Shown here: positions 1 through 50,126 of the stretch, one piece after another
Layout of the letters: the number at the start of each line of letters is the position of its first letter
Numbering within the stretch: the stretch's first letter is position 1
Source of the DNA: a phage
Sequence record: PZ445405.1
Direction: 5' to 3' (one strand)
DNA: 50,126 nucleotides
Translations under genes and position numbers: made by a program
Notes under the pieces: generated by a model
Told to the model about the DNA's origin: nothing
The model's database searches: none
Seen by the model: the letters and a program-made list of their open reading frames with translations, nothing else

Positions 1-63
1 GCACTTTATGCAAAGAATAAAGCTCACGGATGAGCTAACATAATCAAAACAAGAGTGGGTGTT
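1..63 (+). promoter_or_regulatory. Regulatory cassette upstream of HNH-1; T-rich-centre box truncated by window edge (gcactttatgcaaag), hairpin 21-36, CATAAT 39-44
   Basis: Matches the internal cassettes at 10574 and 36960 except that the first 3 nt (ata) lie outside the window. Confidence 0.4.
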
Positions 64-540
64 ATGAATTGGGCTGAATTTTTTAGATACGAAGATGGAA
101 ATCTGGTAAGGGTTACCACAACCTCAAGTAGAGCTATTGAGGGCATGGTTGCTGGAAGCTTGTCTGGCAATGGCTATCTGCACATAAGAATAGGCGACAG
201 GCGTGTAAAAAACCATCTCATAATTTGGGAGATGCACAATGGAAGGATACCAGAAGGGATGGAGATAGATCATATCAATCACATAAAGACAGATAACAGG
301 ATCGAGAATTTAAGGCTCGTAAGTCACAAACAGAACCTATCAAACGCATCTCTTAGGTCAGACTCGTCAACTGGTGCGAGTGGCGTTAGTTGGAACAGAA
401 ACAGGCAGAAGTGGCACGCTTATATAAAGTCTAACTACAAGAGGATGCACATAGGATTTTTTGATTCCTTTGATGATGCCGTAGCAGCAAGAAAGAAAAA
501 GGAGATTGAATTGGGATTTCATGAGAATCACGGAAAATAG
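64..540 (+). CDS. HNH homing endonuclease (HNH + AP2-like DNA-binding domain), copy 1
   Basis: Motif EIDHINHIKTDNRIENLRLVSHKQN; paralogous to ORFs at 30756-31235 and 37032-37517 (all start MNW..); ATG at 64 preferred over GTG at 55. Confidence 0.8.
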   Translation: MNWAEFFRYEDGNLVRVTTTSSRAIEGMVAGSLSGNGYLHIRIGDRRVKNHLIIWEMHNGRIPEGMEIDHINHIKTDNRIENLRLVSHKQNLSNASLRSDSSTGASGVSWNRNRQKWHAYIKSNYKRMHIGFFDSFDDAVAARKKKEIELGFHENHGK

Positions 541-611
541 CACGAATTGCTAAACGACTAGGCCACGGATGGCGTATAGTTACCTTACCAAAACGAGAGG
601 AGAAAAGATAA
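537..611 (+). promoter_or_regulatory. Conserved promoter cassette: box ATAGCACGAATTGCTAAA, 22-bp spacer with small hairpin, TATAGT (575-580), leader AAACGAGAGGAG
   Basis: Palindrome TAGCA-cgaat-TGCTA overlapping the TAG stop of the upstream gene; same architecture repeated about 20 times. Confidence 0.6.
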
Positions 612-3956: not shown

Positions 3957-3989
3957 TCAACTGTTGCAGCTTAATAATTAAGATACATA

Positions 3990-4013
3990 AAGCCTCCTTC
4001 GGGAGGTTTTTTT
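3990..4013 (+). terminator. Rho-independent terminator
   Basis: GCCTCC-ttcg-GGAGG followed by TTTTTTT. Confidence 0.65.
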
Positions 4014-4067
4014 ACGCCTATAATCTGTTAACATGGGGTTCCATAAACGCATAAAGGAAACTTAATA

Positions 4068-5357: not shown

Positions 5358-5363
5358 CAACAA

Positions 5364-9477: not shown

Positions 9478-9868
9478 ATTATCATTAGCCGCAAGGAAAT
9501 TCGTCGACGATTTGTTGGTAAATGAATTTCCGGTCAGATATCCAGTTGCTTGGGAGAACTGTAAGTTTACTCCTCCTGCCGACGGCTCAATCTGGCTTAA
9601 GTACGACTACACAGAAGTTGATACCGTAACCTACGGATTAAGCAGGAAGTGCAAATACTACGTAGGCATGGTGCAGATTTCAGTATTCTTAAGTCCTGGT
9701 ACTGGAATTGATAAGCCGAGACAGATTGCTAATCAATTGGCAGAATCTATCGTTGATGGTACAATGCTTGACAGCGGGACCATTTATGAGTCTGGAGTTG
9801 TTAACCCGGTTATCAAATCCAAGTCTGGGTGGTTTATCCCGGTTCGTTTTTATGTTCGTCTAGACTAA
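9467..9868 (+). CDS. Tail terminator-like protein (putative)
   Basis: GTG start with SD GAGGAGG; position immediately upstream of the major tail gene. Confidence 0.4.
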   Translation: MQYELSLAARKFVDDLLVNEFPVRYPVAWENCKFTPPADGSIWLKYDYTEVDTVTYGLSRKCKYYVGMVQISVFLSPGTGIDKPRQIANQLAESIVDGTMLDSGTIYESGVVNPVIKSKSGWFIPVRFYVRLD

Positions 9869-9883
9869 CAAAAGGAAAAATAC

Positions 9884-10540
9884 ATGGCCCATCTCAGCAA
9901 TGGCACTCAGGTCTTCGTAGAAGGCTCTAGGGGAGCTACAATTGACGTAACTGCAATTTCCAACGCAGTTACCCCTGTTTTAACTGTATCTGACGCCTCT
10001 GGCTTGGTTGTTGGTGATTACCTGCTTTTCACCTCTTCTGCTTCCACGCTTCTGGCTGACAAGCAAGTTCGAGTTACCGAAATCTCTGGCACGTCAGTAA
10101 CTGTTGAAGGTATTGATACCTCTAGCACTACAAAGTTCCCAGCCGGTTTAACTGGTGAAGTTGTTAAGATTACTTCTTGGTTCGAAGTTCCGTGCGTTCA
10201 GGATGTATCTACTGATGGCGGCGAACAGCAGTTCGTTAACTTCCAGTGCCTGTCAGATGACCGTGAACAGCAGATTCCGACTTATAAATCTGCGGTAACT
10301 AACACCTTTACCTTTGCTCATGAGTACACTAACCCGGTTTATCCGGTTCTGCGTAACTATGATGAGTCTGGTCAGGTTGTTGCGATTCGTCTGTTCGTAC
10401 CTAGAGCCAGCGAAATGCGTTTGCAGTCCGGCACTATCGCTTTCAACGACACCCCGACCATTGGCGTTAACGAAATCGAAACGGTATCCATCGCAGTATC
10501 CATTCGTGGCCGCCTGTCCTCTGTGGCAGCAGAAGTTTAA
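9884..10540 (+). CDS. Major tail protein (putative)
   Basis: 218-aa Ser/Thr/Val-rich ORF upstream of the chaperone and tape measure genes, followed by a strong terminator. Confidence 0.55.
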   Translation: MAHLSNGTQVFVEGSRGATIDVTAISNAVTPVLTVSDASGLVVGDYLLFTSSASTLLADKQVRVTEISGTSVTVEGIDTSSTTKFPAGLTGEVVKITSWFEVPCVQDVSTDGGEQQFVNFQCLSDDREQQIPTYKSAVTNTFTFAHEYTNPVYPVLRNYDESGQVVAIRLFVPRASEMRLQSGTIAFNDTPTIGVNEIETVSIAVSIRGRLSSVAAEV

Positions 10541-20500: not shown

Positions 20501-20980
20501 TTCTCTAATGCCACATCAACTGGCGTACAGTACGGAATTAGTCTTGGCCTGAAATACAACGGGCAGACTTATTCATCCGGTATGAGCATGGAGCTCGTTG
20601 GCACTGGTGGCAATGTTCGCAGTCAATTCATTTTTGACGCAAACAGATTCGCAATCAGTAACGGAATTGGTTCTGGTTCCGGTCAGTGGCAACTCCCCTT
20701 TGTTGTTGAGAATGGAAACGTAATCATCCAAAGCGCAGTAATCGGTGATGGATCAATCAGTAACGCGAAGATTGGTAACTTCATTCAGTCCAATAACTAC
20801 GTGGCAGGAAGCAGAGGTTGGAGGATTGATAAGAGTGGTAATGCTGAGATCCGAGGAAAACTTTACGCCAACAGTGGTGAGTTCGCTTTTAACGGAACAA
20901 ACAATACGGTACAGATTAACGGGAACGGAATTACGGTAAACTTACCTGGAGGTGGTAGGGTTGTTGTAGGCACGTTTTAA
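17510..20980 (+). CDS. Central tail fibre / host-specificity protein (lambda gpJ-like)
   Basis: Extensive collinear similarity to lambda J (VPTNYDPETRTYSGTWNG.., GCTRRSEANRRGRWLLKT); start at ATG 17510 with GAGG SD. Confidence 0.9.
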   Translation: MAEEIKIYGAKGGSQKQHQPVEQEDNLISLNKVKVLLAVADGEVDPNFSMKDLYLADVPVQNQNGTYNYEGVRAEFRSGTQYQDYIAGLDGANSEIQASREITNDTPYIIAVNNTQLSAIRVKLFWPRLVKQESNGDLNGTTCEYAIDLSVNGGAYQEYTRGVANGKTTTGYDRSIRVNLPAEFDSALVRIRKITADSTSSTLVNGMQITTYQEVIDAKFRYPLTALVYVEFGSDLFPNGIPTISIKKRWKLIQVPTNYDPETRTYSGTWNGLFKMAWSNNPAWVLYDLVTNRRYGLDQRELGVEIDKWGLYEAAQFCDQMVPDGKGGMEPRYLCDMVVQNKVEAYTLIRDICSIFRGLTFYDGEKIGIVVDKPRNTSYIFTNDNVVNGLFSRTFASDKSLYTTANVQFDDVENNYQQDVEPVFELEATRRFGFNPVDLTAIGCTRRSEANRRGRWLLKTNLRSETISFTTGLEGMIPMIGEVIAVNDAAWSSNYQLNLSGRIESVQGLQVFTPFKVDAAPGDRILLNKPDGSPEARTIASVSEDGRTINLNTAFSFVAQPDTVFAIDKDNLALQQYVVTGIQKADSDGSDSFQYTITAVEYDPNKYDEIDYGVNIADRPTSIVEPDRLSPPENLTVSSYSKIVQGLSVETMVIGWDKAPYAKTYNVQWRKENGNWINVPRTASTEVDIEGIYAGIYDVRIRSVSDTENVSAWSGIVTKSLTGKIGKPPKLQVITASDDEVFGIRVKWGFADGSGDTAYTELQQVADNGDGTYNPDSASLLTLVPYPQYEYWHTPIQPGNVIWYRARIIDRIGNTSDWTDFVRGMSTDDAQKIAEYIKVDIEQSEGFKYLQQNAIDKNQDIQNQAEAIIENALANDSDVRRQSVKNGKFTASITESLQLIADEQQARVTQISQLEADFDGRVNSLNTELREVITTGDSALSRSIDDLRVEIDENISSQITNINTALVTEAEARATADTALSARLGQNEAALNQKLDAFSNATSTGVQYGISLGLKYNGQTYSSGMSMELVGTGGNVRSQFIFDANRFAISNGIGSGSGQWQLPFVVENGNVIIQSAVIGDGSISNAKIGNFIQSNNYVAGSRGWRIDKSGNAEIRGKLYANSGEFAFNGTNNTVQINGNGITVNLPGGGRVVVGTF

Positions 20981-21010
20981 AACAAAAGCCCCGAAAGGGG
21001 CTTTATCTTT
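20977..21010. terminator. Bidirectional terminator between convergent J (+) and the 311-aa gene (-)
   Basis: AGCCCC-gaaa-GGGGCT flanked by an A-run upstream and T-rich sequence downstream. Confidence 0.6.
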
Positions 21011-21944
21011 AATACATATCAGGAAGGTAAGGAAGAGGAATGCCAAGTGTAACGTCTGGCCTATTTCCAATTTCATATCTAACTATCCTTGTGCCCGTGC
21101 CGCTCCTTACATTACCACCAGACATTACCACACCTTTGTTTCTTAGCTCCTTGTATGCAGGTATTGCTCTTGTGTTAAACCCACACCTAAGTATTGGAAA
21201 GTATGAGTTTCCTATACTCTGGTTTGAGCTCGTCAAGGTCCTGAACCCAGAAACAACAAGAGGCCTTGTTAATGTTGAAAAAGTACACTGATTGTTAGAG
21301 TTGAATATGTTTATGCCAGGCCCTGGGGTTGGAGCAACCTGCTGAAATATTATTAGATCAAGAGTTACGCTACCAGGGGTATCTCCAGTATCTTCTGTAT
21401 TTATATTCGTGCAATATAGAGTTCTGTCACCATCAAACTCAACTGAGACACCTGAGTTATTCCACTTCCCAAAAGGTATTCCAGCTATTGGCATTGTATA
21501 GCTGTTTGTGAATGATACGGTTGCTGAAAATTTGCAAGTAAGAAGCCTATCCCTTGTTGTTATAGAGGCGAAATCAGTACTATCAGCAACGTATATACCT
21601 TGCCCAGTTGACGCTCTCAATACTTCCACTACAGTTCCAGAGAACTGCGTAATACGGTCATTATAAGCATTCTCCCCACCAATAGTTATCGTCCCCTGAG
21701 TATTGGTTGCTGAAAATCCATTTATATAATAAATCTCAACCCCCCTATCAAGTTCAAAGCTATAGGCACCATTTCTTGGTAGTAAGAATTTTGATGAGCC
21801 ATCGCTACCAGTTATTGGGAATGTCTTTGTAAATCCTCCGCTAGAAACGTTGAAGTTACCAGCAAAAGACAACCCCCTCATCCCTGAGGTTATCATCATT
21901 GGGTTTCTACCATCATTCAGATCTATATATATACCTTGGGCCAT
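21009..21944 (-). CDS. Hypothetical 311-aa Gly/Ser/Thr/Asn-rich protein; candidate receptor-binding or tail accessory protein
   Basis: ATG overlaps the TAA of the upstream lipoprotein gene (TAATG); SD AAGGAG; location just downstream of J. Confidence 0.5.
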   Translation of the reverse strand: MAQGIYIDLNDGRNPMMITSGMRGLSFAGNFNVSSGGFTKTFPITGSDGSSKFLLPRNGAYSFELDRGVEIYYINGFSATNTQGTITIGGENAYNDRITQFSGTVVEVLRASTGQGIYVADSTDFASITTRDRLLTCKFSATVSFTNSYTMPIAGIPFGKWNNSGVSVEFDGDRTLYCTNINTEDTGDTPGSVTLDLIIFQQVAPTPGPGINIFNSNNQCTFSTLTRPLVVSGFRTLTSSNQSIGNSYFPILRCGFNTRAIPAYKELRNKGVVMSGGNVRSGTGTRIVRYEIGNRPDVTLGIPLPYLPDMY

Positions 21945-22174
21945 TAATTCCACTCCTTAGAGCCATGATCACGAACAGATCCGCTAGAGCCTTTAATTCC
22001 ATCGTAACGAACATCAACCTCGCCAGCCGGAACAACTACACCACCCTTCCATTTAGCTACGCATACGCCGTTAGCTTGAGTTGCACACCAACCATCCGGG
22101 CGAGGACCCGATGAACAACCTACTGTCATGATTACTACTGCGGCGATGATTGCTGATTTGATTAAGTTAGTCAT
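21944..22174 (-). CDS. Small lipoprotein (76 aa); candidate superinfection-exclusion lipoprotein (Llp/Cor-like role)
   Basis: Signal peptide ending in the lipobox-compatible MTVGC; cassette-driven; translationally coupled to the 311-aa ORF. Confidence 0.5.
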
Positions 22175-27191: not shown

Positions 27192-27222
27192 TAAAAAACC
27201 CCGCTTCGGCGGGGTTAGTTTT
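27192..27222. terminator. Bidirectional terminator between SSB (+) and the tail fibre gene (-)
   Basis: ACCCCGC-ttcg-GCGGGGT flanked by A- and T-rich runs. Confidence 0.6.
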
Positions 27223-27228
27223 AGATGA

Positions 27229-29748
27229 TTACCCAGTTGCTCCAGTAACTATATTTTTCCATCCAGTCCCTGTCGCAAAAGCAATTAATCCAGTACCCGT
27301 ACCAAACGATGCATTATTGTTAGTGCATGATTGATTTCCGGTGCGCTGGAGATTTGCAGCATCTACAGTTAAACCAAATCCATAGGCACGATAGTTGAAG
27401 CCACTTTTTGCATTTGATGGGATGAGCGAGTTACCATAGTTTATTGCACCGTAGATATCAACAATCCCTGCTGCGGTCGTTTCAATTGGATTTCCCGAAG
27501 TGGAAATAAGCGTTACGTTACTTGCCGTTACCATTCCTCCAGAATAAAACAGGGCAAGTTTTCCACTGTTCGCACCTGTAACATTACTCAGTATCACTCT
27601 TGGTGATGAGGCGTCTGCATTGGCAGCGAATTGCCTGAACAGATGGCCGTTAGAATAAACCATATCAGAAATGTTTATATTTTTTAACGTTCCTCCACGA
27701 ATTTGGCAGAGTGTTGCCTCTGTTTTATGATCTACCGACCCTTTTATAGTTACGTTGTCAACAACACCTCTCGTAACCAGGCACAATGAACTGTACTGGT
27801 CACCACTTAACAAAGTATTTTTTGACTTGATATTAACGTTAAGGATTCTTGACTTATCATTTCCAGATCCTTCACCACATGCGAATCCAAACTTAGAATT
27901 TCTTGGCGCATCCATGTCTAAGTTATAGACTGTGACACCAACAGACCCCCTAACGTCAACAACAGGAGTTGATATATTAGTTAAGTTAGTGGATACGCCT
28001 TCCACTACCACTTGATCAGCAAACACCTCGCCCAGGCCACGGTCGTAAATTTCACACAGTGCATGGCCCGCTCCAGGAATAGCGGATATATCATCAAATA
28101 TTGCATATTTAACCGTTGTTTTTGTTAGGTTATGATCAGCCCAAATTCTTACCGGAGCATGTTGGCAGGTGCCATGTATTCCCCGTACAGATACATGCTT
28201 AAACTCAACACCATCGTTACCTGCAAGCTTTACAGCACACAGAGTTGTGTCATTAAATAACCCTTCAACATCGATAAATGTGAAATTTCCTCGAGTCCCT
28301 AAGTCATATGATGCGTAATCTCCACCGGTCATTGCGAATAAGTCGTCTCCGGTATGACCACGTAGATTCCTTACATACGCATGGTAGATGGGTGGTTGCA
28401 AGTGAAGACCATCAGAGTGATTGTCAAACTCAAGACCCTGAGCATCAAGGTAATCAATATTCGCTACAAGATAGGCATACTTGAACGCCCCACCAACTTT
28501 AAGTCCACCACCAAGTTTTAGCCTTTTAACACCAGCTATACAGATGGCATGGGTATTAAGCCCTCCTGGAGCAGTACCGGATTTGTTATAATTTATAATT
28601 CCACCACCACGAATTCCAAGATAATCAGATTTTTTAGTCAGGTCCGAAGGGTTTGATATGGTATCAAACCAATACTCACTAATAAATAAAGGCATGTTTG
28701 TGCCTTCTACGTTTCTAATCTCTGTTCCTGCGTGAATCAATACATCCATATTGTTTTTTAGCAGTAAAGAACCATTTACCAACACAACTCCTTTGCAGTC
28801 AAAAACAAATTGAGAAATGAAAGATTGTCCTCCTAGCGACGAAAATACCGAGTTAATCCTTGCAGTATTCTCTTCTGCCGTAGAAGATGGGGATACACCA
28901 TAATCAGACATAAAATAAGTTTGCCCAACGCGCACATCCAAAGGCATAGGAACCCCAGGGCCATTTGGATTTGTGTATGTGACTAGTGACGAACCAGATC
29001 CAGAAGCTAAGTTAGCTCTTAATGATGTATCACTAGCTCTAACCCATGCACCAGGACCAATACCACCAGATGATTCAGGAGTTGATCCAGCTGGAACAAC
29101 CTTAGGTAACGTTCCTGACCAAAGGAACTGTACGGCATAACCATCAATGAATTGAATTATCACTTGGTTTTTTGACTGAAGAGTTACTCCATCATCAAAG
29201 TTACCAACCAGGGCTCCGGATACTGATTCAGCGGCACTCTGAGCGACGATTGCAGAATTGCTTGCAGATGACGCGGAACTAGAAGCTGAATCCTTGTCTG
29301 CTGATACCTGAGATGCATCAGATGATACCTGAGAAGCAATAGTAACAATTTCTCCAAACTGTGTGTTAACTTGGTTTACATCAGTTGAGAATTTATCATG
29401 ATCAAAATCCTTGAAAACATCAACCGCCTCTGCAATCGCAGTTTCACGCGACTGATAGTGACGAAGTGTTTCCGCAACATCTTGAGCTAAACCCTGAACG
29501 GTAATTCCATCATGCGCAAGGATTGCGTAACCAGTACCAGCAGGAACGGTTTCAGAATTAGGGTTGTAAACATTAATCTGCGTATCGCTGATAATTTCTG
29601 AGATGGTGTAAATTTTTACTGGTTCAGTTTTGAAAACAATGGTAGCACCTACGCGAATCAGTGTAAGCGGTGCTTTCCATGTAGTTCCCACGCCGGTCAC
29701 CTCGCCATTTGCGGATAACGACGCCGTTCCTAAGTCATAAATTGCCAT
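27229..29748 (-). CDS. Side tail fibre / tailspike-like protein (839 aa)
   Basis: Large Gly/Ser/Asn/Thr-rich protein with Ser-rich linker (SSDASQVSADKDSASSSASSASNS); start at ATG 29748 with SD GGAG. Confidence 0.6.
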   Translation of the reverse strand: MAIYDLGTASLSANGEVTGVGTTWKAPLTLIRVGATIVFKTEPVKIYTISEIISDTQINVYNPNSETVPAGTGYAILAHDGITVQGLAQDVAETLRHYQSRETAIAEAVDVFKDFDHDKFSTDVNQVNTQFGEIVTIASQVSSDASQVSADKDSASSSASSASNSAIVAQSAAESVSGALVGNFDDGVTLQSKNQVIIQFIDGYAVQFLWSGTLPKVVPAGSTPESSGGIGPGAWVRASDTSLRANLASGSGSSLVTYTNPNGPGVPMPLDVRVGQTYFMSDYGVSPSSTAEENTARINSVFSSLGGQSFISQFVFDCKGVVLVNGSLLLKNNMDVLIHAGTEIRNVEGTNMPLFISEYWFDTISNPSDLTKKSDYLGIRGGGIINYNKSGTAPGGLNTHAICIAGVKRLKLGGGLKVGGAFKYAYLVANIDYLDAQGLEFDNHSDGLHLQPPIYHAYVRNLRGHTGDDLFAMTGGDYASYDLGTRGNFTFIDVEGLFNDTTLCAVKLAGNDGVEFKHVSVRGIHGTCQHAPVRIWADHNLTKTTVKYAIFDDISAIPGAGHALCEIYDRGLGEVFADQVVVEGVSTNLTNISTPVVDVRGSVGVTVYNLDMDAPRNSKFGFACGEGSGNDKSRILNVNIKSKNTLLSGDQYSSLCLVTRGVVDNVTIKGSVDHKTEATLCQIRGGTLKNINISDMVYSNGHLFRQFAANADASSPRVILSNVTGANSGKLALFYSGGMVTASNVTLISTSGNPIETTAAGIVDIYGAINYGNSLIPSNAKSGFNYRAYGFGLTVDAANLQRTGNQSCTNNNASFGTGTGLIAFATGTGWKNIVTGATG

Positions 29749-29771
29749 AATTTCAACTCCTATTTTTATTG

Positions 29772-29789
29772 ATAGCACGAATTGCTAAA
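29772..29789 (+). promoter_or_regulatory. Orphan palindromic box ATAGCACGAATTGCTAAA without downstream -10 or leader
   Basis: Perfect box lying between two minus-strand genes, 24 nt from the tail-fibre start codon. Confidence 0.4.
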
Positions 29790-29811: not shown

Positions 29812-29842
29812 CATAAAAAAACCTCCCGAAGGAGGTTAGTTT
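29812..29842. terminator. Bidirectional terminator overlapping the primase stop codon
   Basis: CCTCC-cgaa-GGAGG flanked by A7 and TTAGTTT. Confidence 0.55.
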
Positions 29843-30759
29843 AGTAGTTCGCTTGCCTTATAGATTCTCTTTCTTATTCCTGACTTGAAAAAATTATCAT
29901 CATTTGGCATTACCACATCAATATTGCGATCGTCAGCAACGGCGAGTAAATCAAGATCGTGGCGAGTACAAGCGATGCGTAACTTGTATTTTCTAAGCGC
30001 GTAAGCAACCATTTCCATGTTGTAGATGGAGTAGCAAACAAGCACGCAGCGGTTGCCAGTAGCAATGTGAACACGATAGCCGTCAATGAGATTATCGACC
30101 AGATAAGCGTAATCATCATCCTTAAAGGAACCAATAACAGAAACAGATTGGCGAGTATAATCTTTTGCAGCATAACTAACACCTCCATATTCATTGATAA
30201 ACATTACATTACACATTTCTTCTGATATGCCGTCACTATAAGCCATAAAGCACGGCACTGCGTGTATTAGTTCGCCTGATTTTGTTCTGCCAACATCAAA
30301 GCCAAACTCGCTATAGATTCCCTCGTATGTACTGAGCGGAGTTGATTCTACTCTTTCAGTCCTTTCCATTATCTCTAAGCATCTTTCGTGGTCAATCTGA
30401 GCGCCCATTTTGTAGATCTGGGTTCTTGATGCTTGCTTGTTTGCTTTAACTATAACCTCAATTGGTGTTAAGTTCAGCCAGTCACCAAGCAAATTTACTG
30501 AATCGGCGAAGGACGATCCAGTGCACTTCATGACCCATCCTATACCGGAGTCACTCCCGCATTTCGAACAAACTGCCGCGCCATTTCCTTTTTCACTGCC
30601 TATTTCGTCGGTAAATCTGAATCTGTCAGTGCCAAAGCAGTATGGGCATGGTCCGTGCTTCTTACTTAGGTGTCTATCATTCCAACCAAGTTCCTTTGCA
30701 TAAAATGATTTCCACAATCCGGCCATCTTAGGTATAACTTCATTCTTATCGTAATTCAT
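29836..30759 (-). CDS. DNA primase-like protein with zinc-ribbon
   Basis: Cys motifs CPYCFG..CSKCGSD in the N-terminal region; ATGA coupling with the upstream HNH gene; replication gene context. Confidence 0.5.
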   Translation of the reverse strand: MNYDKNEVIPKMAGLWKSFYAKELGWNDRHLSKKHGPCPYCFGTDRFRFTDEIGSEKGNGAAVCSKCGSDSGIGWVMKCTGSSFADSVNLLGDWLNLTPIEVIVKANKQASRTQIYKMGAQIDHERCLEIMERTERVESTPLSTYEGIYSEFGFDVGRTKSGELIHAVPCFMAYSDGISEEMCNVMFINEYGGVSYAAKDYTRQSVSVIGSFKDDDYAYLVDNLIDGYRVHIATGNRCVLVCYSIYNMEMVAYALRKYKLRIACTRHDLDLLAVADDRNIDVVMPNDDNFFKSGIRKRIYKASELLN

Positions 30760-31235
30760 TTGCTTAACCCGTGATTTTCGTGAAAGTTGTATTTTCTCTC
30801 TGCTTCAATTCTTACTTTATACGCCTGCTCTGGAGTATCGAAGTTCCCAAGGTGTAACTGCTTACCGTCAACCTTGATGTGAGCCTTAAATTTTCCGTGA
30901 TTTAGCTTTGCCACTCCACAATAACCAGTTGTTGATAAAACGCTAAGCCTGCAATTTCTTGAGTTACCTTGATTTGTTGTTACTCTTAGGTTTTCTATTC
31001 TGTTATCTAATTTGTTATGGTTTATATGATCAATGTAGTCGCCATTTTGAAGTTCTCCATTAAACATCTCCCACACAACTCTATGTACGTAAGTCCTAAA
31101 GCCATTAACAGACACTTTGTAATAGCCAGATGTAGATAGTGAGTTGCACTCATCGCCAACCTTAACACGTCTTGCAGTGCTAATCTTCCAATGCAATTTG
31201 CCATCTACATAGTAAAAATAATCATGCCAGTTCAT
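30756..31235 (-). CDS. HNH homing endonuclease (HNH + AP2-like), copy 2
   Basis: Motifs DHINHNKLDNRIENLRVTT and paralogy to the other two copies. Confidence 0.8.
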   Translation of the reverse strand: MNWHDYFYYVDGKLHWKISTARRVKVGDECNSLSTSGYYKVSVNGFRTYVHRVVWEMFNGELQNGDYIDHINHNKLDNRIENLRVTTNQGNSRNCRLSVLSTTGYCGVAKLNHGKFKAHIKVDGKQLHLGNFDTPEQAYKVRIEAERKYNFHENHGLSK

Positions 31236-31308
31236 TTTCTTCTCTCCAATAAAAAAGGATGTACCGATTATGGCACATCCAATCCTTTAATCTTTAGCTT
31301 TTCGTGCT
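31236..31308 (-). promoter_or_regulatory. Cassette variant upstream of HNH-2 (box AGCACGAAAAGCTAAAG, terminator hairpin, CATAAT, TTTTTTATTGGAGA RBS junction)
   Basis: Box overlaps the C-terminus and stop of the upstream gene; hairpin GGATGT..ACATCC. Confidence 0.45.
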
Positions 31309-31760
31309 GCTTCGTTAGCTGCCTTAATCTTGCGCCACGATCGACACTCTGGCTTGGTGGCCAGTTCAGCCTCAGTTACCACACGCAGCATGTGACGTTT
31401 TTTGCAGCGTAGAGTTAGTGGTTTTCCGTTACCGTCGAATTGCAGGTCTGGTCTACAGAATGTGGCGCGAAAACCTTCTCCGGTTCGTTTGTAGTAGTTG
31501 TGCGACAGTTGAGCGCCACGTGCAGAAATCATACCACGCTTAAACCACTCTTCTACAGCCTGCGGCGTTACCTTTAACTGCTTTGCGATATTCGCCTTTG
31601 TGCCGAAGAAATCAAGAATCATCTCTAACCTTGCGCGTAACCCAGCCCTTACCTCATCTTTCAAAACGTAGTAACCTGAAGGTCGCTTTCGCTGCTTTTT
31701 ATCTTCAGTGCGGATGGTTCCGTTATTGCCGTTAATGGTTCGCTTGTCAATTGTACTCAT
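31287..31760 (-). CDS. Putative HTH DNA-binding protein (157 aa)
   Basis: HTH-like segment ANIAKQLKVTPQAVEEWFKRGMIS; basic; first gene of an early minus-strand operon. Confidence 0.45.
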   Translation of the reverse strand: MSTIDKRTINGNNGTIRTEDKKQRKRPSGYYVLKDEVRAGLRARLEMILDFFGTKANIAKQLKVTPQAVEEWFKRGMISARGAQLSHNYYKRTGEGFRATFCRPDLQFDGNGKPLTLRCKKRHMLRVVTEAELATKPECRSWRKIKAANEAARKAKD

Positions 31761-31772
31761 TTCATTACCTCG

Positions 31773-31861
31773 ATAGCATTTTTTGTTAAAAGTCATTCTG
31801 ATTTGATGGTAGTATTGTACTCAATTAAACGCTACAAGACAATTTTTATAGGAATTTAGAT
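31773..31861 (+). promoter_or_regulatory. T-rich-centre cassette upstream of the helicase gene (ATAGCATTTTTTGTTAAAAG)
   Basis: Box-like sequence followed at about 21 bp by TAGTAT; ATG at 31862. Confidence 0.4.
31814..31842 (-). promoter_or_regulatory. Sigma70-like promoter on the minus strand (TTGTCT, 17 bp, TACAAT)
   Basis: Canonical 17-bp spacing, divergent from the helicase cassette; would drive the HTH, HNH-2, primase operon. Confidence 0.4.
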
Positions 31862-35828: not shown

Positions 35829-36959
35829 ATGGCAACTGCAAAAATCACCAACGAACAATTGCGCGAAGAGCTAGCAAATGGCATGACCAACAAGGCAATC
35901 GCAGAGAAGTACGGAATGAACATTCGCAACGTTGAATTGCGTCGCAGTAAATTAGCGAAGAGTGGAGAATTGCACGGAAACCCGGGAATCAAGAAGTTAG
36001 TTCCTGACGGCTATTTGGTCAAAGGGACGTCAACGATGATTGACGCTGAGGGCAACGAAAAGATTCGCTGGGTTAAGACCTCTGTAGATAATGAGCGCCT
36101 TGAGGTTTTGATGGAACAGGCTCGAGAGGCATTCTGCTCTGAGTTGCCAAAGGCAGATTCGGTCACCCACTCAGGCAATGAGGTCAACTCTGAATTAATG
36201 ACTCTTTACCCTATTTTCGATATCCATATCGGCATGATGGCTCATCGACATGAGTCTGGTGAAAATTATGACACCAATACCGCAGAGAAATTAATGGAAT
36301 CATATTTCGATCATGCAATTTCTGTATCGCCATCCTCAGAGAAAGCTGTGATTTTAGTTGGCGGCGACTTCCTTCACTCTGACGGATTGGAAGCTGTAAC
36401 CCCAGCAAGCGGACACTGCCTTGATCAGGATAGTAGGTATGCTAAGTTAGTTTATGTTGCGATTCGCTCAATTCGTGGTGCCGTAGAGAAGATGCTTAAG
36501 AAGCATAAGAATGTCGAGATTCAGATTATAGAGGGAAATCATGACCAGAGTGGTATGATTTGGCTCCGTGCGGCAATGGCTGCATTTTATGAAAACGAGA
36601 GTCGCGTCTTTGTTGATACCAGTCCGGCAATCATGCACAAAACTAGATTTGGCTCAACATTACTTGGTTACACACACGGCCACACAATGAAGAAGGCAGA
36701 AGGCAGGCTTGCAGCTATGGCAACTGATTACAGGAAAGATTTTGGTGAGTGTGAATTTGTTTATTGCCATTCCGGGCATTTTCACCACGCAACTGTTACA
36801 GAGTGCACACTTGGGATTGATGAGGTTCACCCAGCCCTGGCTAGCAAGGATGCATATGCCGCTCGCGGAGGGTGGCGATCATATCGCCAAGCGGCTGCAA
36901 TTGTTTACCACAAGAATTTTGGCGAGGTTGGTCGACACATTTATCGCCCCGGTATGTAA
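35829..36959 (+). CDS. Calcineurin-like metallophosphoesterase with N-terminal HTH-like domain
   Basis: Phosphoesterase motifs DIHIG, GGDFLH, GNHD, GHTH, GHFH in canonical order. Confidence 0.6.
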   Translation: MATAKITNEQLREELANGMTNKAIAEKYGMNIRNVELRRSKLAKSGELHGNPGIKKLVPDGYLVKGTSTMIDAEGNEKIRWVKTSVDNERLEVLMEQAREAFCSELPKADSVTHSGNEVNSELMTLYPIFDIHIGMMAHRHESGENYDTNTAEKLMESYFDHAISVSPSSEKAVILVGGDFLHSDGLEAVTPASGHCLDQDSRYAKLVYVAIRSIRGAVEKMLKKHKNVEIQIIEGNHDQSGMIWLRAAMAAFYENESRVFVDTSPAIMHKTRFGSTLLGYTHGHTMKKAEGRLAAMATDYRKDFGECEFVYCHSGHFHHATVTECTLGIDEVHPALASKDAYAARGGWRSYRQAAAIVYHKNFGEVGRHIYRPGM

Positions 36960-37031
36960 ATAGCACCTTTTGTTAAAACAGTAGCCGCGAAAGCGGCTAT
37001 TATTGTTTTATACAAACGATAGGAGATTGAA
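36960..37031 (+). promoter_or_regulatory. T-rich-centre cassette upstream of HNH-3 (ATAGCACCTTTTGTTAAAAC, hairpin, TATTAT 36998-37003)
   Basis: 22-bp spacing; hairpin AGCCGCG-aaa-GCGGCT in the spacer; SD AGGAG. Confidence 0.5.
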
Positions 37032-37517
37032 ATGAATTGGCATGATATTTTTGAATACAACGATGGCATTCTTTATCATAAAGTTAAGTTATGTATAAGA
37101 AATGATGTTAACGTTGGTGATATTGCTGGGGGGGGCGTTAGGCAAAACGGCTATCACTACGTGAATTACAAAAATAAGTTTTACAAAAGGTCAAGGGTTG
37201 TATGGGAGATGTTTAATGGAGATATACCTGAGGGATTTGTCATTGATCACGTCAACCATGACGCGACAGATGACAGGATAGAAAACCTAGAGTGCAAGGA
37301 GCGCAGGGATAACATGGTTAATGTAAAGCTAAGGATTGATAGCTCCTCTGGTGTAACTGGTGTAGCAAGAAAGAGCGGTAATAAGTGGAGGGCATACATA
37401 ACAATCATGGGTAAGCAGAAGTCCAAGAGCTTTAACACGTTTGAGGATGCTTGCGCACAGAGGATTGAATGGTCGGTAACTCATGATTTTCACCCAAATC
37501 ACGGTGGAAAATACTAA
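37032..37517 (+). CDS. HNH homing endonuclease (HNH + AP2-like), copy 3
   Basis: Motif VIDHVNHDATDDRIENLE and paralogy to copies 1 and 2. Confidence 0.8.
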   Translation: MNWHDIFEYNDGILYHKVKLCIRNDVNVGDIAGGGVRQNGYHYVNYKNKFYKRSRVVWEMFNGDIPEGFVIDHVNHDATDDRIENLECKERRDNMVNVKLRIDSSSGVTGVARKSGNKWRAYITIMGKQKSKSFNTFEDACAQRIEWSVTHDFHPNHGGKY

Positions 37518-37602
37518 ATAGCACTTTTTGCCTAACCCATGCCGTAGAAATGCGGCATAATCACCACATCGAAACGAGATTAACTAAACGAGGAAACGCA
37601 AG
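37518..37602 (+). promoter_or_regulatory. T-rich-centre cassette (ATAGCACTTTTTGCCTAAC, hairpin, CATAAT 37556-37561, leader CATCGAAACGAG)
   Basis: 22-bp spacing; hairpin ATGCCG-tagaa-ATGCGGCAT. Confidence 0.5.
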
Positions 37603-37779
37603 ATGACTAAAATGATTTATTGCACCAAGAACAACTCCAAGACTCTGCCATTTACAGTCAACAATCCGTATAACGCAGAGTACCAGGGTGATGGATATTA
37701 CAAGATTTATGGCGACGATATGACGCACATCTTAGCACCGATTGATGGTTCGCTGGTTGAATTTATTATCGCAGACTAG
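37603..37779 (+). CDS. Hypothetical small Tyr/Gly/Asp-rich protein (58 aa)
   Basis: ORF below the track cutoff found by reading downstream of the cassette; SD GAGG; motif YQGDGYYKIYGDD. Confidence 0.35.
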   Translation: MTKMIYCTKNNSKTLPFTVNNPYNAEYQGDGYYKIYGDDMTHILAPIDGSLVEFIIAD

Positions 37780-42865: not shown

Positions 42866-43200
42866 CTAATCCATTTTCACGCTTACACGTAACGCCCGTA
42901 GCGCGATGTAAGCCAACGCCTATCGTTACGCGAGTTACGCGCAGCTACGCCTAGACTTACACTATAAGTGCCTAATATATATATATATCTTCTTTCTATT
43001 ATTATTATTATTATTATTATTATTGTATGTAAGTCATGTAACGGGGTTTCCGGCGATATCTATATGTTTTTTCCTATCAGTTATAGCCTTGGCTATAATT
43101 TAAGGTATGGAGTGGGTGTTTTGGGGCCATTTGCCTCGTTACACGCACGACACGCCACTTACATTAAGCTATAGCTGGGCTAGCATACCATTTCGCGTAA
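42866..43200. repeat. Iteron plus microsatellite control region B (paralog of region A)
   Basis: ACGTAAC 42887, CGATGTA 42904, G(T/C)TACGC x3 at 42925/42934/42944, (AT)7 42975-42988, (TAT)9 42997-43023, palindrome AGCTATAGCT 43167-43176. Confidence 0.7.
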
Positions 43201-43229
43201 CGACCCCCAAAAGTTACCAAAAATTACAC

Positions 43230-43258
43230 TTGACTACATGTGTAAGTCGGGATATGAT
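43230..43258 (+). promoter_or_regulatory. Strong sigma70-type promoter (TTGACT, 17 bp, TATGAT) with conserved leader
   Basis: Near-consensus hexamers at canonical spacing; leader AAACGAGAGGAG precedes ATG 43290. Confidence 0.6.
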
Positions 43259-43289
43259 GGACTCAACTTAAACGAGAGGAGTGATAGAG

Positions 43290-43769
43290 ATGAACGAGAA
43301 AGTAACATTGGGCCAAGTGATTCGTGAGATGGTGAAAGCAGCGCTTAAGTCTGAGGACAAGCAGATCAGCGTGACACTCAACAAGATTGAGAGCCTTATC
43401 GGCGCCGAGGAGGGTGGTCTAAATAAGCTTAAGAGCTCATACATCTACAATACAACGGCTCGCATGCCTGAGTTGAGAGATGCCGGACTGAAGGCGACTC
43501 ACCACTATGATGAAGAAAGGGGTGTTAATGAATATACTGGGAGTGAGATACTTGGAGACAAAAAGCTTGTTATTAAACTAATTCCAGGCTCGGCAAACAT
43601 TGGAATCAGGAAGAAGACCAACGACGCGATCAAGGATGAGGCAATCACTGAGTTCAAAGCCAGGATTTCTAAGGTGATGCCAGACCTTTCTGCGTATGAA
43701 GGTGAGGCCCTTGCAGCCGCTATGAAGGCCATTAAGGATTACCGTTTGATTATTGAGGAGATTAAGTGA
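43290..43769 (+). CDS. Hypothetical protein (159 aa), likely immediate-early
   Basis: First gene behind the sigma70 promoter; SD GAGGAG. Confidence 0.45.
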   Translation: MNEKVTLGQVIREMVKAALKSEDKQISVTLNKIESLIGAEEGGLNKLKSSYIYNTTARMPELRDAGLKATHHYDEERGVNEYTGSEILGDKKLVIKLIPGSANIGIRKKTNDAIKDEAITEFKARISKVMPDLSAYEGEALAAAMKAIKDYRLIIEEIK

Positions 43770-47950: not shown

Positions 47951-48457
47951 ATGAGCAAAGCAGCATTAAAGATGGGCGAGGGAAATTTCAAGGCGCTCTA
48001 CAACAAGAAGTATGGCGACATTGCTATGGTGGCAATCAACCGCAAGTACACGCCTGAGGAGGTATTTGACTTTGCCGTTCGATACTTCTCATGGGCCGAG
48101 AGTGAGGCAATAAAAGCAATTGAGACGGCAGCATTTCAAGGCGTGGTTAGTGAAAGCCTGGTACATAAACCTCGAGTGTTCACATTAACCGGGCTGGCGC
48201 TCTTCATGGGTGTTAATATCAATAGATTCGCTCGCTGGCGTACTGAGGCTGGATACTCTGATGTGATGGAATTTATTGATAACGTAATTTACGAGCAGAA
48301 ATACCAACTTGGCGTTGCGGGTATCATCAACTCTACCATTGTCGGTAAAGAGCTAGGCATTGATAAGCCGCAGGAAATCACTATTAGCAACAACTCCACC
48401 GCTAACGACGTTGATAGCATGAAGGAAGCGCTGGAGTCTGTGATTAGTAAGCTGTAA
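47951..48457 (+). CDS. Terminase small subunit (putative)
   Basis: 168-aa ORF immediately upstream of the large terminase gene; SD AGGAGG. Confidence 0.55.
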   Translation: MSKAALKMGEGNFKALYNKKYGDIAMVAINRKYTPEEVFDFAVRYFSWAESEAIKAIETAAFQGVVSESLVHKPRVFTLTGLALFMGVNINRFARWRTEAGYSDVMEFIDNVIYEQKYQLGVAGIINSTIVGKELGIDKPQEITISNNSTANDVDSMKEALESVISKL

Positions 48458-48558
48458 AAATATGAGGGTATAACAATGAAAGGCTTTATTAAATTATTCA
48501 TTTGGTATTATTTATTAACGAGCATATCTCTTTGTGTCTTTATGTTGGTGGTTAAGCT

Positions 48559-50126
48559 ATGGCTAATTTAATCTGGGAAGAAATGACAAGTCAGGAGAAA
48601 TTAGCCGTTAAAGCTATCTCAGAGCATAGTTTTGAGGGCTTTTTAAGGTGTTGGTTTTCAATAACACAAGGCGAGCGATACATACCTAACTGGCATCACA
48701 AGTACCTGTGTAGAATCATTGACGAGATTATCGCAGGGGAACGTAAGGACACCATCATCAACATAGCGCCGGGCAGCGGAAAGACAGAAATCGCTTCAAT
48801 CCACTTCCCTGCCTACTCTATGGTTAAGCTGAAGAAGGTGCGGAACCTTAACATCTCCTTTGCTGACTCACTGGTTAAGCGTAACTCGAAGCGCGTACGT
48901 GACCTTATCAAATCTCAAGAATTTCAATCACTCTGGCCATGCAAGTTTGGAACGTGCAAAGACGATGAACTTCAGGTTCTTGATGAGAATGGCAGGGTTA
49001 GATTTGAGTCAATATCAAAGGCGGCGGGAGGTCAGATTACAGGCGCTCGAGGTGGCTATATAACAGAAACATACAGCGGGGCCGTTCTATTGGATGATTT
49101 CGACAAGCCGGCTGACATGCTTTCTCAGGTTTATCGAACGAATAATCACGTAATGCTCAAGAACACAATTCGCTCACGTCGAGCTAGCTCTGTGAAAGGC
49201 AAGGCAACGCCAATAATTTCTATACAGCAGCGACTCCATGTGAATGATAGCACTTGGTTCATGATGGAAGGTGGTATGGGTATTGACTTCGACTTGATTA
49301 AGATACCGGCATTGGTTACTGAGGATTACATTGATTCACTTCCTGACTGGATTAAAGAGCAGTTTGCTGATGACGTACTAAGTAGCGAATATATTGAGCG
49401 AGATGGCGTAAAATACTACAGTTATTTCCCTAAAAAGGAATCTGTAAACGACCTAGTGGCAATGTGGGATAGTGACCCGTACACATTCCTTAGCCAGTAT
49501 CAGCAGGAACCTGTAGCGCTCGGCGGCAATCTGATTAACGTGGATTGGTTCCAGAGAATCAGCGATACGTTCAGACCTCCAGCTAAATATGACTATCGAT
49601 TCATAACTTGCGACACTGCGATGACTACAAAGAGTTATAGTGACTTCTCTGTACTTCAATTGTGGGGCTATAAAGATGCCAAGATTTACCTGATAGACCA
49701 GCGTAGAGGTAAGTGGGAGGCGCCGGAGTTGGAATCTGAACTACTGGATTTCGAGAGGAAATCAAGAGCAACCAGTCAGACGGATGGTATCCTTAGAAAG
49801 ATTATCATCGAGAAGAAGGCTTCCGGAATTGGCCTAATTCAATCCGCAGGTAGAGTTATGCGAACACCGATAGAGCCATATGTTCCGGATAACGACAAGC
49901 TAACCAGGATAATGAGCGCCCTGCCGCAGATTAAGGCTGGTAACGTCGTTCTTCCAGAATCAGCACCGTGGCTAAATGGATTGCTTACGGAGGTTGCGGC
50001 TTTCACCGCGGATGACTCTCATAAGCACGACGACCAAATTGACTGTCTAACAATGGCGGTAAACCTTGTTCTCAATATAGCAGATGATCCAAAATCAAGA
50101 ATGCTTCGCCTTGCCGGAATAAAATA
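48559..50126 (+). CDS. Terminase large subunit (3' end truncated by window edge, about 522 codons present)
   Basis: Open frame to the window end (absent from the ORF track because no stop is reached); Walker A APGSGKT, Walker B-like LLDDFD, C-terminal nuclease motif DDSHKHDDQIDC. Confidence 0.85.
   Translation, partial: MANLIWEEMTSQEKLAVKAISEHSFEGFLRCWFSITQGERYIPNWHHKYLCRIIDEIIAGERKDTIINIAPGSGKTEIASIHFPAYSMVKLKKVRNLNISFADSLVKRNSKRVRDLIKSQEFQSLWPCKFGTCKDDELQVLDENGRVRFESISKAAGGQITGARGGYITETYSGAVLLDDFDKPADMLSQVYRTNNHVMLKNTIRSRRASSVKGKATPIISIQQRLHVNDSTWFMMEGGMGIDFDLIKIPALVTEDYIDSLPDWIKEQFADDVLSSEYIERDGVKYYSYFPKKESVNDLVAMWDSDPYTFLSQYQQEPVALGGNLINVDWFQRISDTFRPPAKYDYRFITCDTAMTTKSYSDFSVLQLWGYKDAKIYLIDQRRGKWEAPELESELLDFERKSRATSQTDGILRKIIIEKKASGIGLIQSAGRVMRTPIEPYVPDNDKLTRIMSALPQIKAGNVVLPESAPWLNGLLTEVAAFTADDSHKHDDQIDCLTMAVNLVLNIADDPKSRMLRLAGIK

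Follow-up and report, generated by a model that had tools for sequence, protein, structure and literature searches.

The T4 proteins SegF, SegG, and MobE are free-standing homing endonucleases that cause localised marker exclusion, and both their cleavage and the exclusion have been shown experimentally. Genes of the Seg and Mob families are intronless, lie beside or between essential genes, are optional among relatives, and co-convert adjacent sequence; the Seg enzymes are of the GIY-YIG type, while the Mob enzymes are of another HNH type than the one considered here. I-HmuI of Bacillus phage SPO1 (structure 1U3E) is a site-specific nickase encoded in a group I intron, with a helical C-terminal DNA-binding part. 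The combination of HNH and AP2 domains is treated as a recognised homing-endonuclease family (PMC10448857, citing Magnani 2004), and the IPA-HNH genes of ICP1, which also join an N-terminal HNH to a C-terminal AP2 domain, are found beside essential genes and at recombination-tract boundaries (PMC10448857), as are the genes described below. Among Drexlerviridae, HNH genes occur sporadically beside the lysis cassette, in 25 of 522 phages, and a "repositioning of HNH nucleases" has already been reported (PMC13164509). Additionally, 21-nt ATAGCAC direct repeats are known in TLS, T1, and Rtp (PMC11447400).

The window analyzed here, a stretch of 50,126 nt (PZ445405.1), is the circularly permuted genome of an Rtp/T1-like Drexlerviridae coliphage, and its closest relative is RobRod40, which is ~86% identical genome-wide. 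Three HNH genes (HNH-1, HNH-2, and HNH-3) were located where the first-pass annotation had placed them (Table 1), and a tblastn search with seven family members as queries returned exactly these three copies and no fourth in the window. Judged by their sequences, all three are HNH homing endonuclease genes of an ordinary kind, already known from T1-like phages. The same genes occupy the same sites in other Drexlerviridae (RobRod40 WWD13296/WWD13261, DTL ORF60, CEB_EC3a gp38, IME542 gp02, and T1 gp15), and their novelty is low since near-identical genes are already annotated in GenBank. The presence/absence alleles and identity islands described below suggest that the three are probably free-standing HNH_3 + AP2 homing endonuclease genes of separate lineages, acquired independently rather than by recent duplication within the genome.

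Table 1. Features at the three HNH loci of the window
Feature	Position	Strand	Evidence
Last ~100 nt of terL, upstream arm of HNH-1 island	50026..50126	+	0-2 mismatches/50 nt vs RobRod40
HNH-1 T-group ATAGCAC cassette, hairpin AGCTCAcggaTGAGCT	1..63, head ATA 50124-50126	+	missing from empty alleles
HNH-1 ORF, 158 aa, HNH_3 + weak AP2 match	64..540	+	ORF call, Pfam
Resident G-group ATAGCAC cassette of 126-aa structural gene, right end of insert	534..611	+	empty alleles
DNA primase gene, 307 aa, host gene of HNH-2 locus	29836..30759	-	ORF call, relatives' annotation
Primase codons 1-107 (zinc-binding domain), co-travelling with HNH-2	30436..30755	-	identity island
HNH-2 ORF, 159 aa, HNH_3 + AP2-like C-terminal domain	30756..31235	-	ORF call, Pfam
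RBS leader GGAGAGAAGAAA, 12 nt, imported with HNH-2	31236..31247	-	filled vs empty allele alignment
Resident intrinsic-terminator-like hairpin GGATGTGCCATAATCGGTACATCC + T6ATT, 3' of regulator gene	31248..31280	-	empty alleles, terminator scan
Resident transcriptional regulator gene, 169 aa, 5' of HNH-2, shared by all relatives	31287..31796	-	ORF call, annotation
DNA-repair exonuclease gene, left neighbour of HNH-3 site	35829..36959	+	RobRod40, T1 annotation
HNH-3 T-group cassette TAAATAGCACCTTTTGTTAAAAC, hairpin GTAGCCGCgaaaGCGGCTA(T), T-rich tail, TATTAT, AAACGATAGGAG RBS	36957..37031	+	missing from empty alleles
HNH-3 ORF, 161 aa, HNH_3 + AP2-like domain, positional orthologue of T1 gp15 (ST15)	37032..37517	+	ORF call, Pfam
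Resident T-group cassette of 58-aa SH3-like gene, bounds HNH-3 insert	37515..37602	+	empty alleles
58-aa gene, right neighbour of HNH-3 site	37603..37779	+	ORF call; PMC13164509

Each ORF matched the Pfam family HNH_3 (PF13392), with E-values of 2.7e-21 for HNH-1, 3.3e-18 for HNH-2, and 5.2e-18 for HNH-3, and with scores of 65-75 bits against a gathering cut-off of 24.8. The three are therefore canonical members of this family, whereas the ICP1 genes have diverged too far for its profile to detect them (PMC10448857). An N-terminus MNW..(F) and a core IDH(I/V)NH...D.RIENL are invariant among the copies, much as the first-pass annotation had described, while the DNRIENL ending it gave to all of them does not extend to HNH-3, which reads DDRIENL. 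Residues D69, H70, N82, and N91 are identical in the three copies and align with the I-HmuI motif, so that each of the tested residues (the D-H pair, the structural Asn of ENL, and the distal Asn) is present throughout. The I-HmuI structure was the better of only two matches in a search of solved structures (E = 0.046); the alignment covers the N-terminal DNA-binding region and the HNH motif, with the D-H, N, and N positions kept, whereas the window genes are free-standing and AP2-like at the C-terminus. Both HNH-3 and T1 gp15 carry an N to D change in the DNR motif, which makes their activity uncertain.

The assignment of an AP2 domain held at the profile level. A profile built from seven C-terminal domains matched only plant AP2/ERF structures (WRI1, E = 9.7e-6; ERF096, 0.0075; AtERF1, 0.03; and also TEM1), while the Pfam AP2 model matched four of the seven members weakly, below its gathering score, and gave no match to HNH-2 by itself. 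In an AF2 model of HNH-2, strands at residues 105-110, 116-122, and 125-132 and a helix at 135-148 (pLDDT 71-78) were predicted, which agrees with the three-stranded sheet and single helix of the AP2 topology. This model was built from a 3-sequence alignment and has a low overall pLDDT of 52, with values below 50 across the HNH core (residues 31-103), and only its C-terminal topology was used.

HNH-1 lies between the terL stop codon, which straddles the window ends (50125-50126/1), and a 126-aa structural gene that itself stands ahead of the portal gene, in agreement with the terminase/portal location proposed earlier. It is preceded by (ATA)GCACTTTATGCAAAG, and its stop codon TAG is the TAG of the following ATAGCAC repeat. 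The direct repeat AAAATAGCAC flanks the gene, with an upstream copy at 50121-50126/1-4 and a downstream copy at 534-543, and alignments to the empty alleles of JulesPiccard and Rtp start exactly at the resident cassette. Among 91 related records, the site was filled solely in RobRod40, and the gene was absent from about 89. HNH-1 and the adjoining end of terL were 96-100% identical to RobRod40 (96-98% over window positions 1-500, comprising HNH-1 and its leader, and 98% over the last 100 nt of terL), compared to 76% for the whole of terL, which has 5-17 mismatches per 50 nt farther upstream. The protein shares 96% of its amino acids with the RobRod40 gene at the same site, followed by a Webervirus gene at another site with 58%, and a scan of IMG/VR found nothing nearer than Webervirus-type genes (57%).

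At the HNH-3 locus, the product of the right-hand neighbour has been reported to be a standalone SH3 domain that belongs to the lysis module of Drexlerviridae (PMC13164509). The site was empty in BEK2, RobRod40, JeanPiccard, and others. In BEK1-1 and DTL it is occupied by a different HNH lineage, and in a further group that includes SU57 by a PNK+ATPase pair. In the empty alleles of BEK2 and JeanPiccard, a copy of the cassette that precedes the SH3-like gene stands alone, and in the window its head, TAAATAGCAC (37515-37524), recurs as a direct repeat at 36957-36966. HNH-3 and T1 gp15 occupy one site across subfamilies and share 79% nucleotide and 78% amino acid identity, compared to nucleotide identities of 65% for the exonuclease, 57% for the SH3-like gene, and 57% for the endolysin. 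No copy above 78% identity to HNH-3 was found in the phage collection or IMG/VR, the nearest being T1/JMPW2 at that value. HNH-3 is preceded by ATAGCACCTTTTGTTAAAAC, and its cassette includes a hairpin at 36980-37001, with a folding energy of -23.2 kcal/mol (z = -5.2). This hairpin also occurs in the T1 leader, where it carries a terminator annotation and a stem pair has changed from G:C to C:G in a compensatory manner. Neither the HNH-3 leader nor the cassette downstream of the gene showed a standard promoter in a scan for the sigma-70 consensus. TTGCTA stands 22 nt from a -10-like box, a spacing too long for a -35 element.

The first-pass annotation had given every HNH gene a T-rich-centre cassette of its own. 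For HNH-1 and HNH-3 this was borne out, as both cassettes lie within the insert and are absent from the empty alleles. Each of the two genes thus imports the published ATAGCAC-N3-TTG-TAAA repeat, the head of which flanks it as a direct repeat. The window contains 19 copies of this repeat (~2 expected for the core), and those inspected, at the HNH-1 and HNH-3 loci, were in the sense direction ~75 nt upstream of a start codon. The consensus and the A, T, and G groups match exactly the description for TLS in the accessible part of PMC11447400, a part in which a link between the repeats and HNH insert junctions is not mentioned. Indels bounded by repeat copies were found at the HNH-1, HNH-3, and PNK+ATPase junctions, a pattern that HNH-2 does not fit. 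The Drexlerviridae repeats are hereby tied to mosaic junctions. They resemble the PeSLs of T4-type phages (PMC2839356, PMC4122927) in being a repeated, transcription-oriented intergenic composite, often with a hairpin, that bounds indels, while their sequence is unrelated.

These junctions may also be explained with HNH-1 and HNH-3 as passive cargo, where recombination between ATAGCAC copies would insert, delete, or swap ORFs without need of a nuclease. The cassette-head repeats on both sides of the two genes are consistent with this, as is the precedent of the PeSL promoter/terminator cassettes. One junction has accepted three cargoes, each bounded by AATAGCAC: the HNH-3 lineage, the lineage of BEK1-1 and DTL, and the PNK+ATPase pair, which is nuclease-free and has the same flanking repeats. 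The leader and 3' end reach 88-97% conservation, compared to an identity of only ~60% in the ORF bodies. Moreover, 12 of 48 alignment break points against RobRod40 fell in cassette spans compared to 1.6 expected, although this expectation derives from genome coverage, not intergenic space, and two of the 12 are the window ends. The identity islands, too, could come from ordinary homologous recombination at conserved linkers with no role of an endonuclease. However, such recombination leaves unexplained HNH-2 and the HNH gene beside the major tail protein gene of RobRod40, neither of which has a flanking repeat, the recurrence of HNH genes rather than other ORFs at many sites, and the persistence of one lineage at one site across subfamilies. 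It is also compatible with homing, in that the repeats could serve the first insertion and the nuclease the later spread. As a full account, passive carriage is considered unlikely.

HNH-2 differs from the other two in its surroundings. No ATAGCAC element was found upstream of it, and the alignment of filled and empty alleles placed the left insertion junction between 31248 and 31247, so that only the 12-nt RBS leader was imported. The hairpin upstream (31257-31280 with its T-run; -16.8 kcal/mol, z = -3.7) belongs to the regulator gene and is unchanged in the empty alleles of JeanPiccard and EcG8, which rules it out as a piece of a mobile cassette and leaves HNH-2 without the cassette claimed for it. 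The reported ATGA coupling was verified: the stop codon TGA overlaps the primase start ATG at 30756-30759, and the annotations of the six filled relatives all show an identical 4-nt overlap. The insert has displaced the primase RBS and altered primase codons 2-3, from MHHDK to MNYDK.

Of 116 records, the HNH-2 site was filled in nine, representing six phages (RobRod40, DTL, CEB_EC3a, IME542, TR1, and phiA2-1), and empty in about 100. The carriers span Guelphvirus, Loudonvirus, Christensenvirus, and unclassified Braunvirinae, and their annotated genes at this site share 98.1-98.7% amino acid identity with HNH-2, while the next relative falls below 49%. Across HNH-2 and the adjoining ~320 nt at the 5' end of the primase gene, identity is 98.5-100% among the six phages (98.5-99.2% for HNH-2 itself), compared to flanks of 68-93%, with 79-89% in the regulator gene and 68-93% in the primase 3' half. 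Over primase codons 1-107, each of the six filled genomes shows 0-2 mismatches per 50 nt, and the island ends sharply at ~30436. The same stretch in empty alleles has 12-21 mismatches per 50 nt or is not alignable; the protein identities are 98-100% to filled and 47-67% to empty alleles. This island matches the co-conversion pattern of T4 Seg and Mob genes, which are known from experiment while the HNH genes of the window are known from sequence. The edge common to all carriers is equally compatible with repeated homing, with one ancestral recombinant module, and with a crossover forced to the first conserved stretch (KANKQASRT).

Retention for a phage function would offer another account of HNH-1 and HNH-2, the former as an aid to terminase packaging in the manner of HK97 gp74 and the latter as a servant of replication or primase expression. 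HNH-1 adjoins terL, and Rtp and RobRod40 have another HNH gene between terS and terL. In addition, HNH-2 has replaced the primase RBS, is coupled to the gene, and is intact in all six carriers, as expected if it were retained because primase translation now depends on it. Yet neither gene can be required, since both are absent from most related records, and the terS/terL copy of RobRod40 is a pseudogene. Packaging HNH proteins of the HK97 gp74 type belong to family PF01844, not to HNH_3 with an AP2-like domain as in the window. Packaging in T1-like phages is of the pac-site type (PMC11447400). A packaging role of HNH-1 was ruled out by the presence of the gene at the terL site in one of 91 related records, and domestication as a whole is very improbable. 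Recent duplication of one HNH gene to two further loci of this genome, for which the common N-terminus, core, and length might speak, was likewise ruled out, with next to no likelihood left to it, as the copies are only 40-43% identical in amino acids while far closer same-site relatives exist in other phages (98-99% for HNH-2 in six phages, 96% for HNH-1 in RobRod40, and 78% for HNH-3 in T1 gp15); the term paralogous, used in the first-pass annotation, is thus apt for one family with shared motifs but not for copies that arose within the window.

Homing by three independently acquired genes remains the preferred explanation. At each locus, a precise presence/absence polymorphism at a defined site was observed, together with a gene and short adjacent tracts that are more similar than the backbone. 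The comparison of empty sites proposed earlier found HNH-less alleles to be common at all three loci; carriage of the same genes at the same sites by all relatives, which would have spoken against mobility, is therefore not the case, and the alleles and islands support the earlier view of mobile free-standing genes.

The cleavage, target position, and repair pathway that we infer would operate in a cell infected by both the window phage and an HNH-less relative. There, a specific sequence close to the empty site would be bound by the AP2-like C-terminal domain and an N-terminal beta region, and the beta-beta-alpha-metal HNH centre (D69-H70, N82, N91) would nick or cut it. Phage recombination genes, of which exonuclease VIII and an Erf-like annealing protein are annotated in RobRod40, may then repair the break with the HNH-carrying genome as the template, and thereby carry over the endonuclease gene plus adjacent DNA. 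HNH-1 and HNH-3 are self-contained units of a putative regulatory ATAGCAC repeat and an ORF, set in register with a stop codon on one side and the resident repeat of the following gene on the other, and the repeats provide short homology at the junctions. HNH-2 instead is embedded in a regulator-primase unit, behind the resident terminator and with its stop overlapping the primase start. It is always accompanied by a variant primase zinc-binding domain, which is probably a cleavage-immune allele of its target.

A broader and rather doubtful proposal joins two ideas, that HNH-2 and the primase zinc-binding domain form a co-adapted selfish module, and that the ATAGCAC repeats are activator-dependent promoters doubling as PeSL-like landing pads. 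HNH-2 would cut the region of the zinc-binding domain in a rival primase gene and install the linked immune variant. Through the ATGA overlap and the lost RBS, translation of the primase would come to depend on the HNH-2 frame, and if so the module could not be cleanly lost. The palindrome TAGCA-N5-TGCTA, centred at about -42 from the -10-like box, might then be read as the site of a class-II activator, and HNH and other accessory genes would enter new sites via the repeats.

While the consequence for genome annotation is small, as the genes are ordinary and were annotated before, the three loci offer ready experimental systems in which filled and empty alleles are both defined, in coliphages that can be cultivated and some of which belong to the BASEL collection. 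Of these systems, the island of HNH-2 and the primase zinc-binding domain, with its sharp edge common to six carriers, is the most useful. The comparison also speaks against basing Drexlerviridae phylogeny on terL or primase 5' sequences.

Two further sites, both empty in the window, are occupied in RobRod40, one by an HNH gene and the other by an HNH pseudogene. For HNH-1 and HNH-2, the substitutions were too few to reveal purifying selection. The DTL copy is shortened to 142 aa, and the HNH-1 of RobRod40 has a D to Y change in the DH motif; these copies and the RobRod40 pseudogene appear decayed, as would be expected from a homing cycle.

All three HNH open reading frames (HNH-1, HNH-2, and HNH-3) were confirmed at the positions claimed by the first-pass annotation, and all matched the Pfam family HNH_3 (E = 1e-18 to 1e-21). 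Of the shared N-terminus and core described there, MNW was invariant, as were the D-H pair, the ENL-Asn, and the distal Asn, while DNRIENL holds for HNH-1 and HNH-2 but reads DDRIENL in HNH-3, as in T1 gp15. A C-terminal profile (~65 residues from seven family members) searched against the PDB matched plant AP2/ERF structures only (WRI1, E = 9.7e-6), an AlphaFold model, poor overall, placed three strands and a helix at residues 105-148 (pLDDT 71-78), and the top solved-structure match of HNH-2 was the homing endonuclease I-HmuI, though weak (E = 0.046). Together these results justify the label HNH-AP2. With the same seven family members as tblastn queries, no fourth copy was found in the window. 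Recent intragenomic duplication was excluded: pairwise identities among the three are only 40-43%, and each has a closer relative at its own site in another phage, in the case of HNH-3 T1 gp15 (78% aa).

The window comprises a complete coliphage genome of the Rtp/T1-like type (Drexlerviridae, Braunvirinae-like) in circularly permuted form. The terL gene runs off its end, and the stop codon TAG, split across the ends within an ATAGCAC repeat, is completed at base 1. The nearest record was Escherichia phage RobRod40, with 86% identity over 78% of the window.

Features of the phage genome (window positions) and corresponding positions in compared sequences
Feature	Window position	Strand	Compared sequence
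HNH-1	64-540	+	RobRod40 HNH-1, L010/L013 1636-2112
HNH-1 island	50026, across the window join, to ~550
Tail terminator/major tail protein site (empty)	9867-9884		RobRod40 HNH_3 gene, L013 10611-11096
849-aa ORF	27229-29778
Primase gene	29836-30759	-
Primase zinc-binding domain (aa 1-107)	30436-30759	-
HNH-2/primase island	~30436 to ~31250
HNH-2	30756-31235	-
Regulator gene	31287-31796	-
Insertion hot spot at HNH-3 site	36957-37602		DTL HNH, L008 1671-2099; SU57 junction, L007 960-2130
HNH-3 leader hairpin	36980-37001
HNH-3	37032-37517	+
terS/terL gap (empty)	48457-48566		RobRod40 HNH_3 pseudogene, L013 47070-47573
Small reading frame in terS/terL gap	from ~48476
terL stop codon	50125-50126 and base 1
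Segments without nucleotide match in RobRod40	3737-5362, 20838-22158, 27209-29180, 43039-43749
ATAGCAC repeat, 15 copies	537, 10574, 15665, 25928, 29772, 34269, 35047, 36960, 37518, 44290, 44567, 45441, 45863, 46430, 50124
ATAGCAC repeat, 4 copies	22258, 24276, 41428, 42692	-

At the HNH-2 site, a 98-99% identical gene was found in nine records, which stand for six phages from several genera (RobRod40, DTL, CEB_EC3a, IME542, TR1, and phiA2-1), and was missing from about a hundred relatives. Alignment of filled and empty alleles defined the junctions. The insert begins with a 12-nt RBS leader GGAGAGAAGAAA, replaces the native primase RBS and codons 2-3, and ends with a stop codon overlapping the primase start, as the proposed ATGA coupling had it. 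The cassette of its own attributed to HNH-2 was not upheld, because the upstream hairpin GGATGTGCCATAATCGGTACATCC and T-run also occur in HNH-less phages and are the regulator gene's resident terminator.

Counting mismatches in 50-nt steps revealed a near-identical island of HNH-2 and primase codons 1-107 in all six carriers, outside which the remaining primase was 68-93% and the regulator gene 79-89% identical to the window. In protein sequence, carriers share 98-100% identity in the primase zinc-binding domain, whereas identity to the HNH-less alleles drops to 47-67% there, although the rest of the HNH-less primases was 84-92% identical to the window. HNH-2 thus spreads jointly with a variant form of the primase N-terminal domain. 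Such an island would be the expected pattern of target-region co-conversion, in which the HNH-2 target would lie within the zinc-binding-domain region of sensitive primase alleles and repair would co-convert that region. A single recombinant module that crosses over only at KANKQASRT, the first conserved stretch, would be equally compatible. Close relatives carried at least three strongly diverged forms of this domain, where the form in the window was strictly linked to HNH-2 and switched at the KANKQASRT stretch. Also at the primase locus, the records "Campylobacter phage A110b" and "Pseudomonas phage PsgS01F" were 86-92% identical to this coliphage, and their host labels seem doubtful.

At the terL site of HNH-1, RobRod40 was the sole other carrier among 91 matching records. 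The terL stop directly abuts AAATAGCACGAATTGC in the empty alleles of JulesPiccard and Rtp, while the window and RobRod40 both have an insert, an ATAGCAC cassette plus the ORF, bracketed by two copies of AAAATAGCAC. The island differed from RobRod40 by 0-3 mismatches per 50 nt, compared with 5-17 in the upstream terL (76% identity overall) and 8-16 in the downstream structural gene. The next relatives of HNH-1 (58%) were in Klebsiella Weberviruses, at a different site and coupled to the helicase start. In the RobRod40 HNH-1, the catalytic D-H pair has Tyr instead of Asp.

Occupancy of the HNH-3 site, the junction between a DNA-repair exonuclease gene and a 58-aa SH3-like gene, varied among relatives. 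It was empty in BEK2, RobRod40, JeanPiccard, and others, was occupied by another HNH lineage in BEK1-1 and DTL, and by a polynucleotide kinase (PNK) and ATPase pair in SU57 and others. Every insert was bounded by a common TAAATAGCAC head, and the site forms an insertion hot spot with inserts flanked by AATAGCAC heads. The DTL gene is truncated (142 aa), and one DTL record carries no annotation for it. The nearest relative of HNH-3, T1 gp15, occupies the same site in another subfamily, and no closer copy was found in the phage collection or IMG/VR. Identity to T1 was 79% for the gene (nt) and 88% for the whole leader, near-identical in the cassette core, and lower in the flanks (exonuclease 65%, SH3-like 57%, endolysin 57%). 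The leader hairpin, GTAGCCGC-GAAA-GCGGCTA, has a counterpart annotated as a terminator in T1, where a compensatory G:C to C:G change speaks for selection on the stem itself.

The cassette motif noticed earlier had already been published, in the reannotation of TLS, as a 21-nt direct repeat aaATAGCACnnnTTGnTAAAA with A, T, and G groups that lies ~76 nt ahead of start codons and is also present in T1 and Rtp; no function is assigned to it there (PMC11447400). The window contains 19 intergenic copies with the consensus aAATAGCAC-N3-TTGcTAAA, followed by a 20-nt variable spacer (frequently with a hairpin, sometimes with a T-run), a TATAaT-like box, CATCGAAACGA, an RBS, and ATG. The palindrome TAGCA-N5-TGCTA is centered at about -42 relative to the presumed start site, a geometry by which the repeats might be class II activator-dependent promoters. 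A T-group copy accompanies HNH-1, HNH-3, and a RobRod40 pseudogene between terS and terL. Of 48 break points relative to RobRod40, 12 (two of them the window ends) fell in cassette spans, against 1.6 expected under a crude null. In this enrichment the cassettes resemble the PeSL cassettes of T4-type phages (PMC2839356, PMC4122927).

The proposal of free-standing mobile endonuclease genes at three loci was mostly correct, and the reading best supported by the sequence comparisons is intronless homing of the classical kind, by three HNH_3-AP2 genes independent of one another. It is favored by family membership and clean empty alleles at every site, by identity islands with short flanking tracts, by a lineage that keeps to its site across subfamilies, and by decayed copies (the shortened DTL gene, the altered DH motif of the RobRod40 HNH-1, and the RobRod40 pseudogene). 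We infer cleavage, target position, and biased inheritance for all three genes. The main rival, passive repeat-mediated shuffling of cassette-plus-ORF units, accounts for the HNH-1 and HNH-3 junctions and the nuclease-free PNK cargo, but leaves unexplained HNH-2 and the RobRod40 HNH gene beside the major tail protein gene, both of which lack flanking repeats. It may well be that homing and shuffling act one after the other. A domesticated packaging or replication role is unlikely, as most relatives lack these genes.

The finding of three HNH genes is real, yet its kind and most of its detail were known before. GenBank lists near-identical genes under the annotation HNH endonuclease, the annotation of T1 gp15 goes back to the T1 genome record, HNH-AP2 is a recognized homing-endonuclease architecture (PMC10448857), and there is a report of sporadic HNH genes adjoining the lysis cassette in Drexlerviridae (PMC13164509). 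The exact junctions, the common HNH-2/primase-domain island, and the association of ATAGCAC repeats with two of three inserts are added here.

RobRod40 includes two further HNH_3 sites, both empty in the window: the gene between tail terminator and major tail protein, and the terS/terL pseudogene. Rtp encodes an intact HNH gene, rtp20, between terS and terL, where the window holds an ATG-initiated small reading frame instead. Additionally, the segments unmatched in RobRod40 make up much of the 2.5 kb excess of the window genome, and one of them (27209-29180) falls inside the 849-aa ORF; the equivalent ORFs of relatives bear the annotation (lateral) tail fibre protein.
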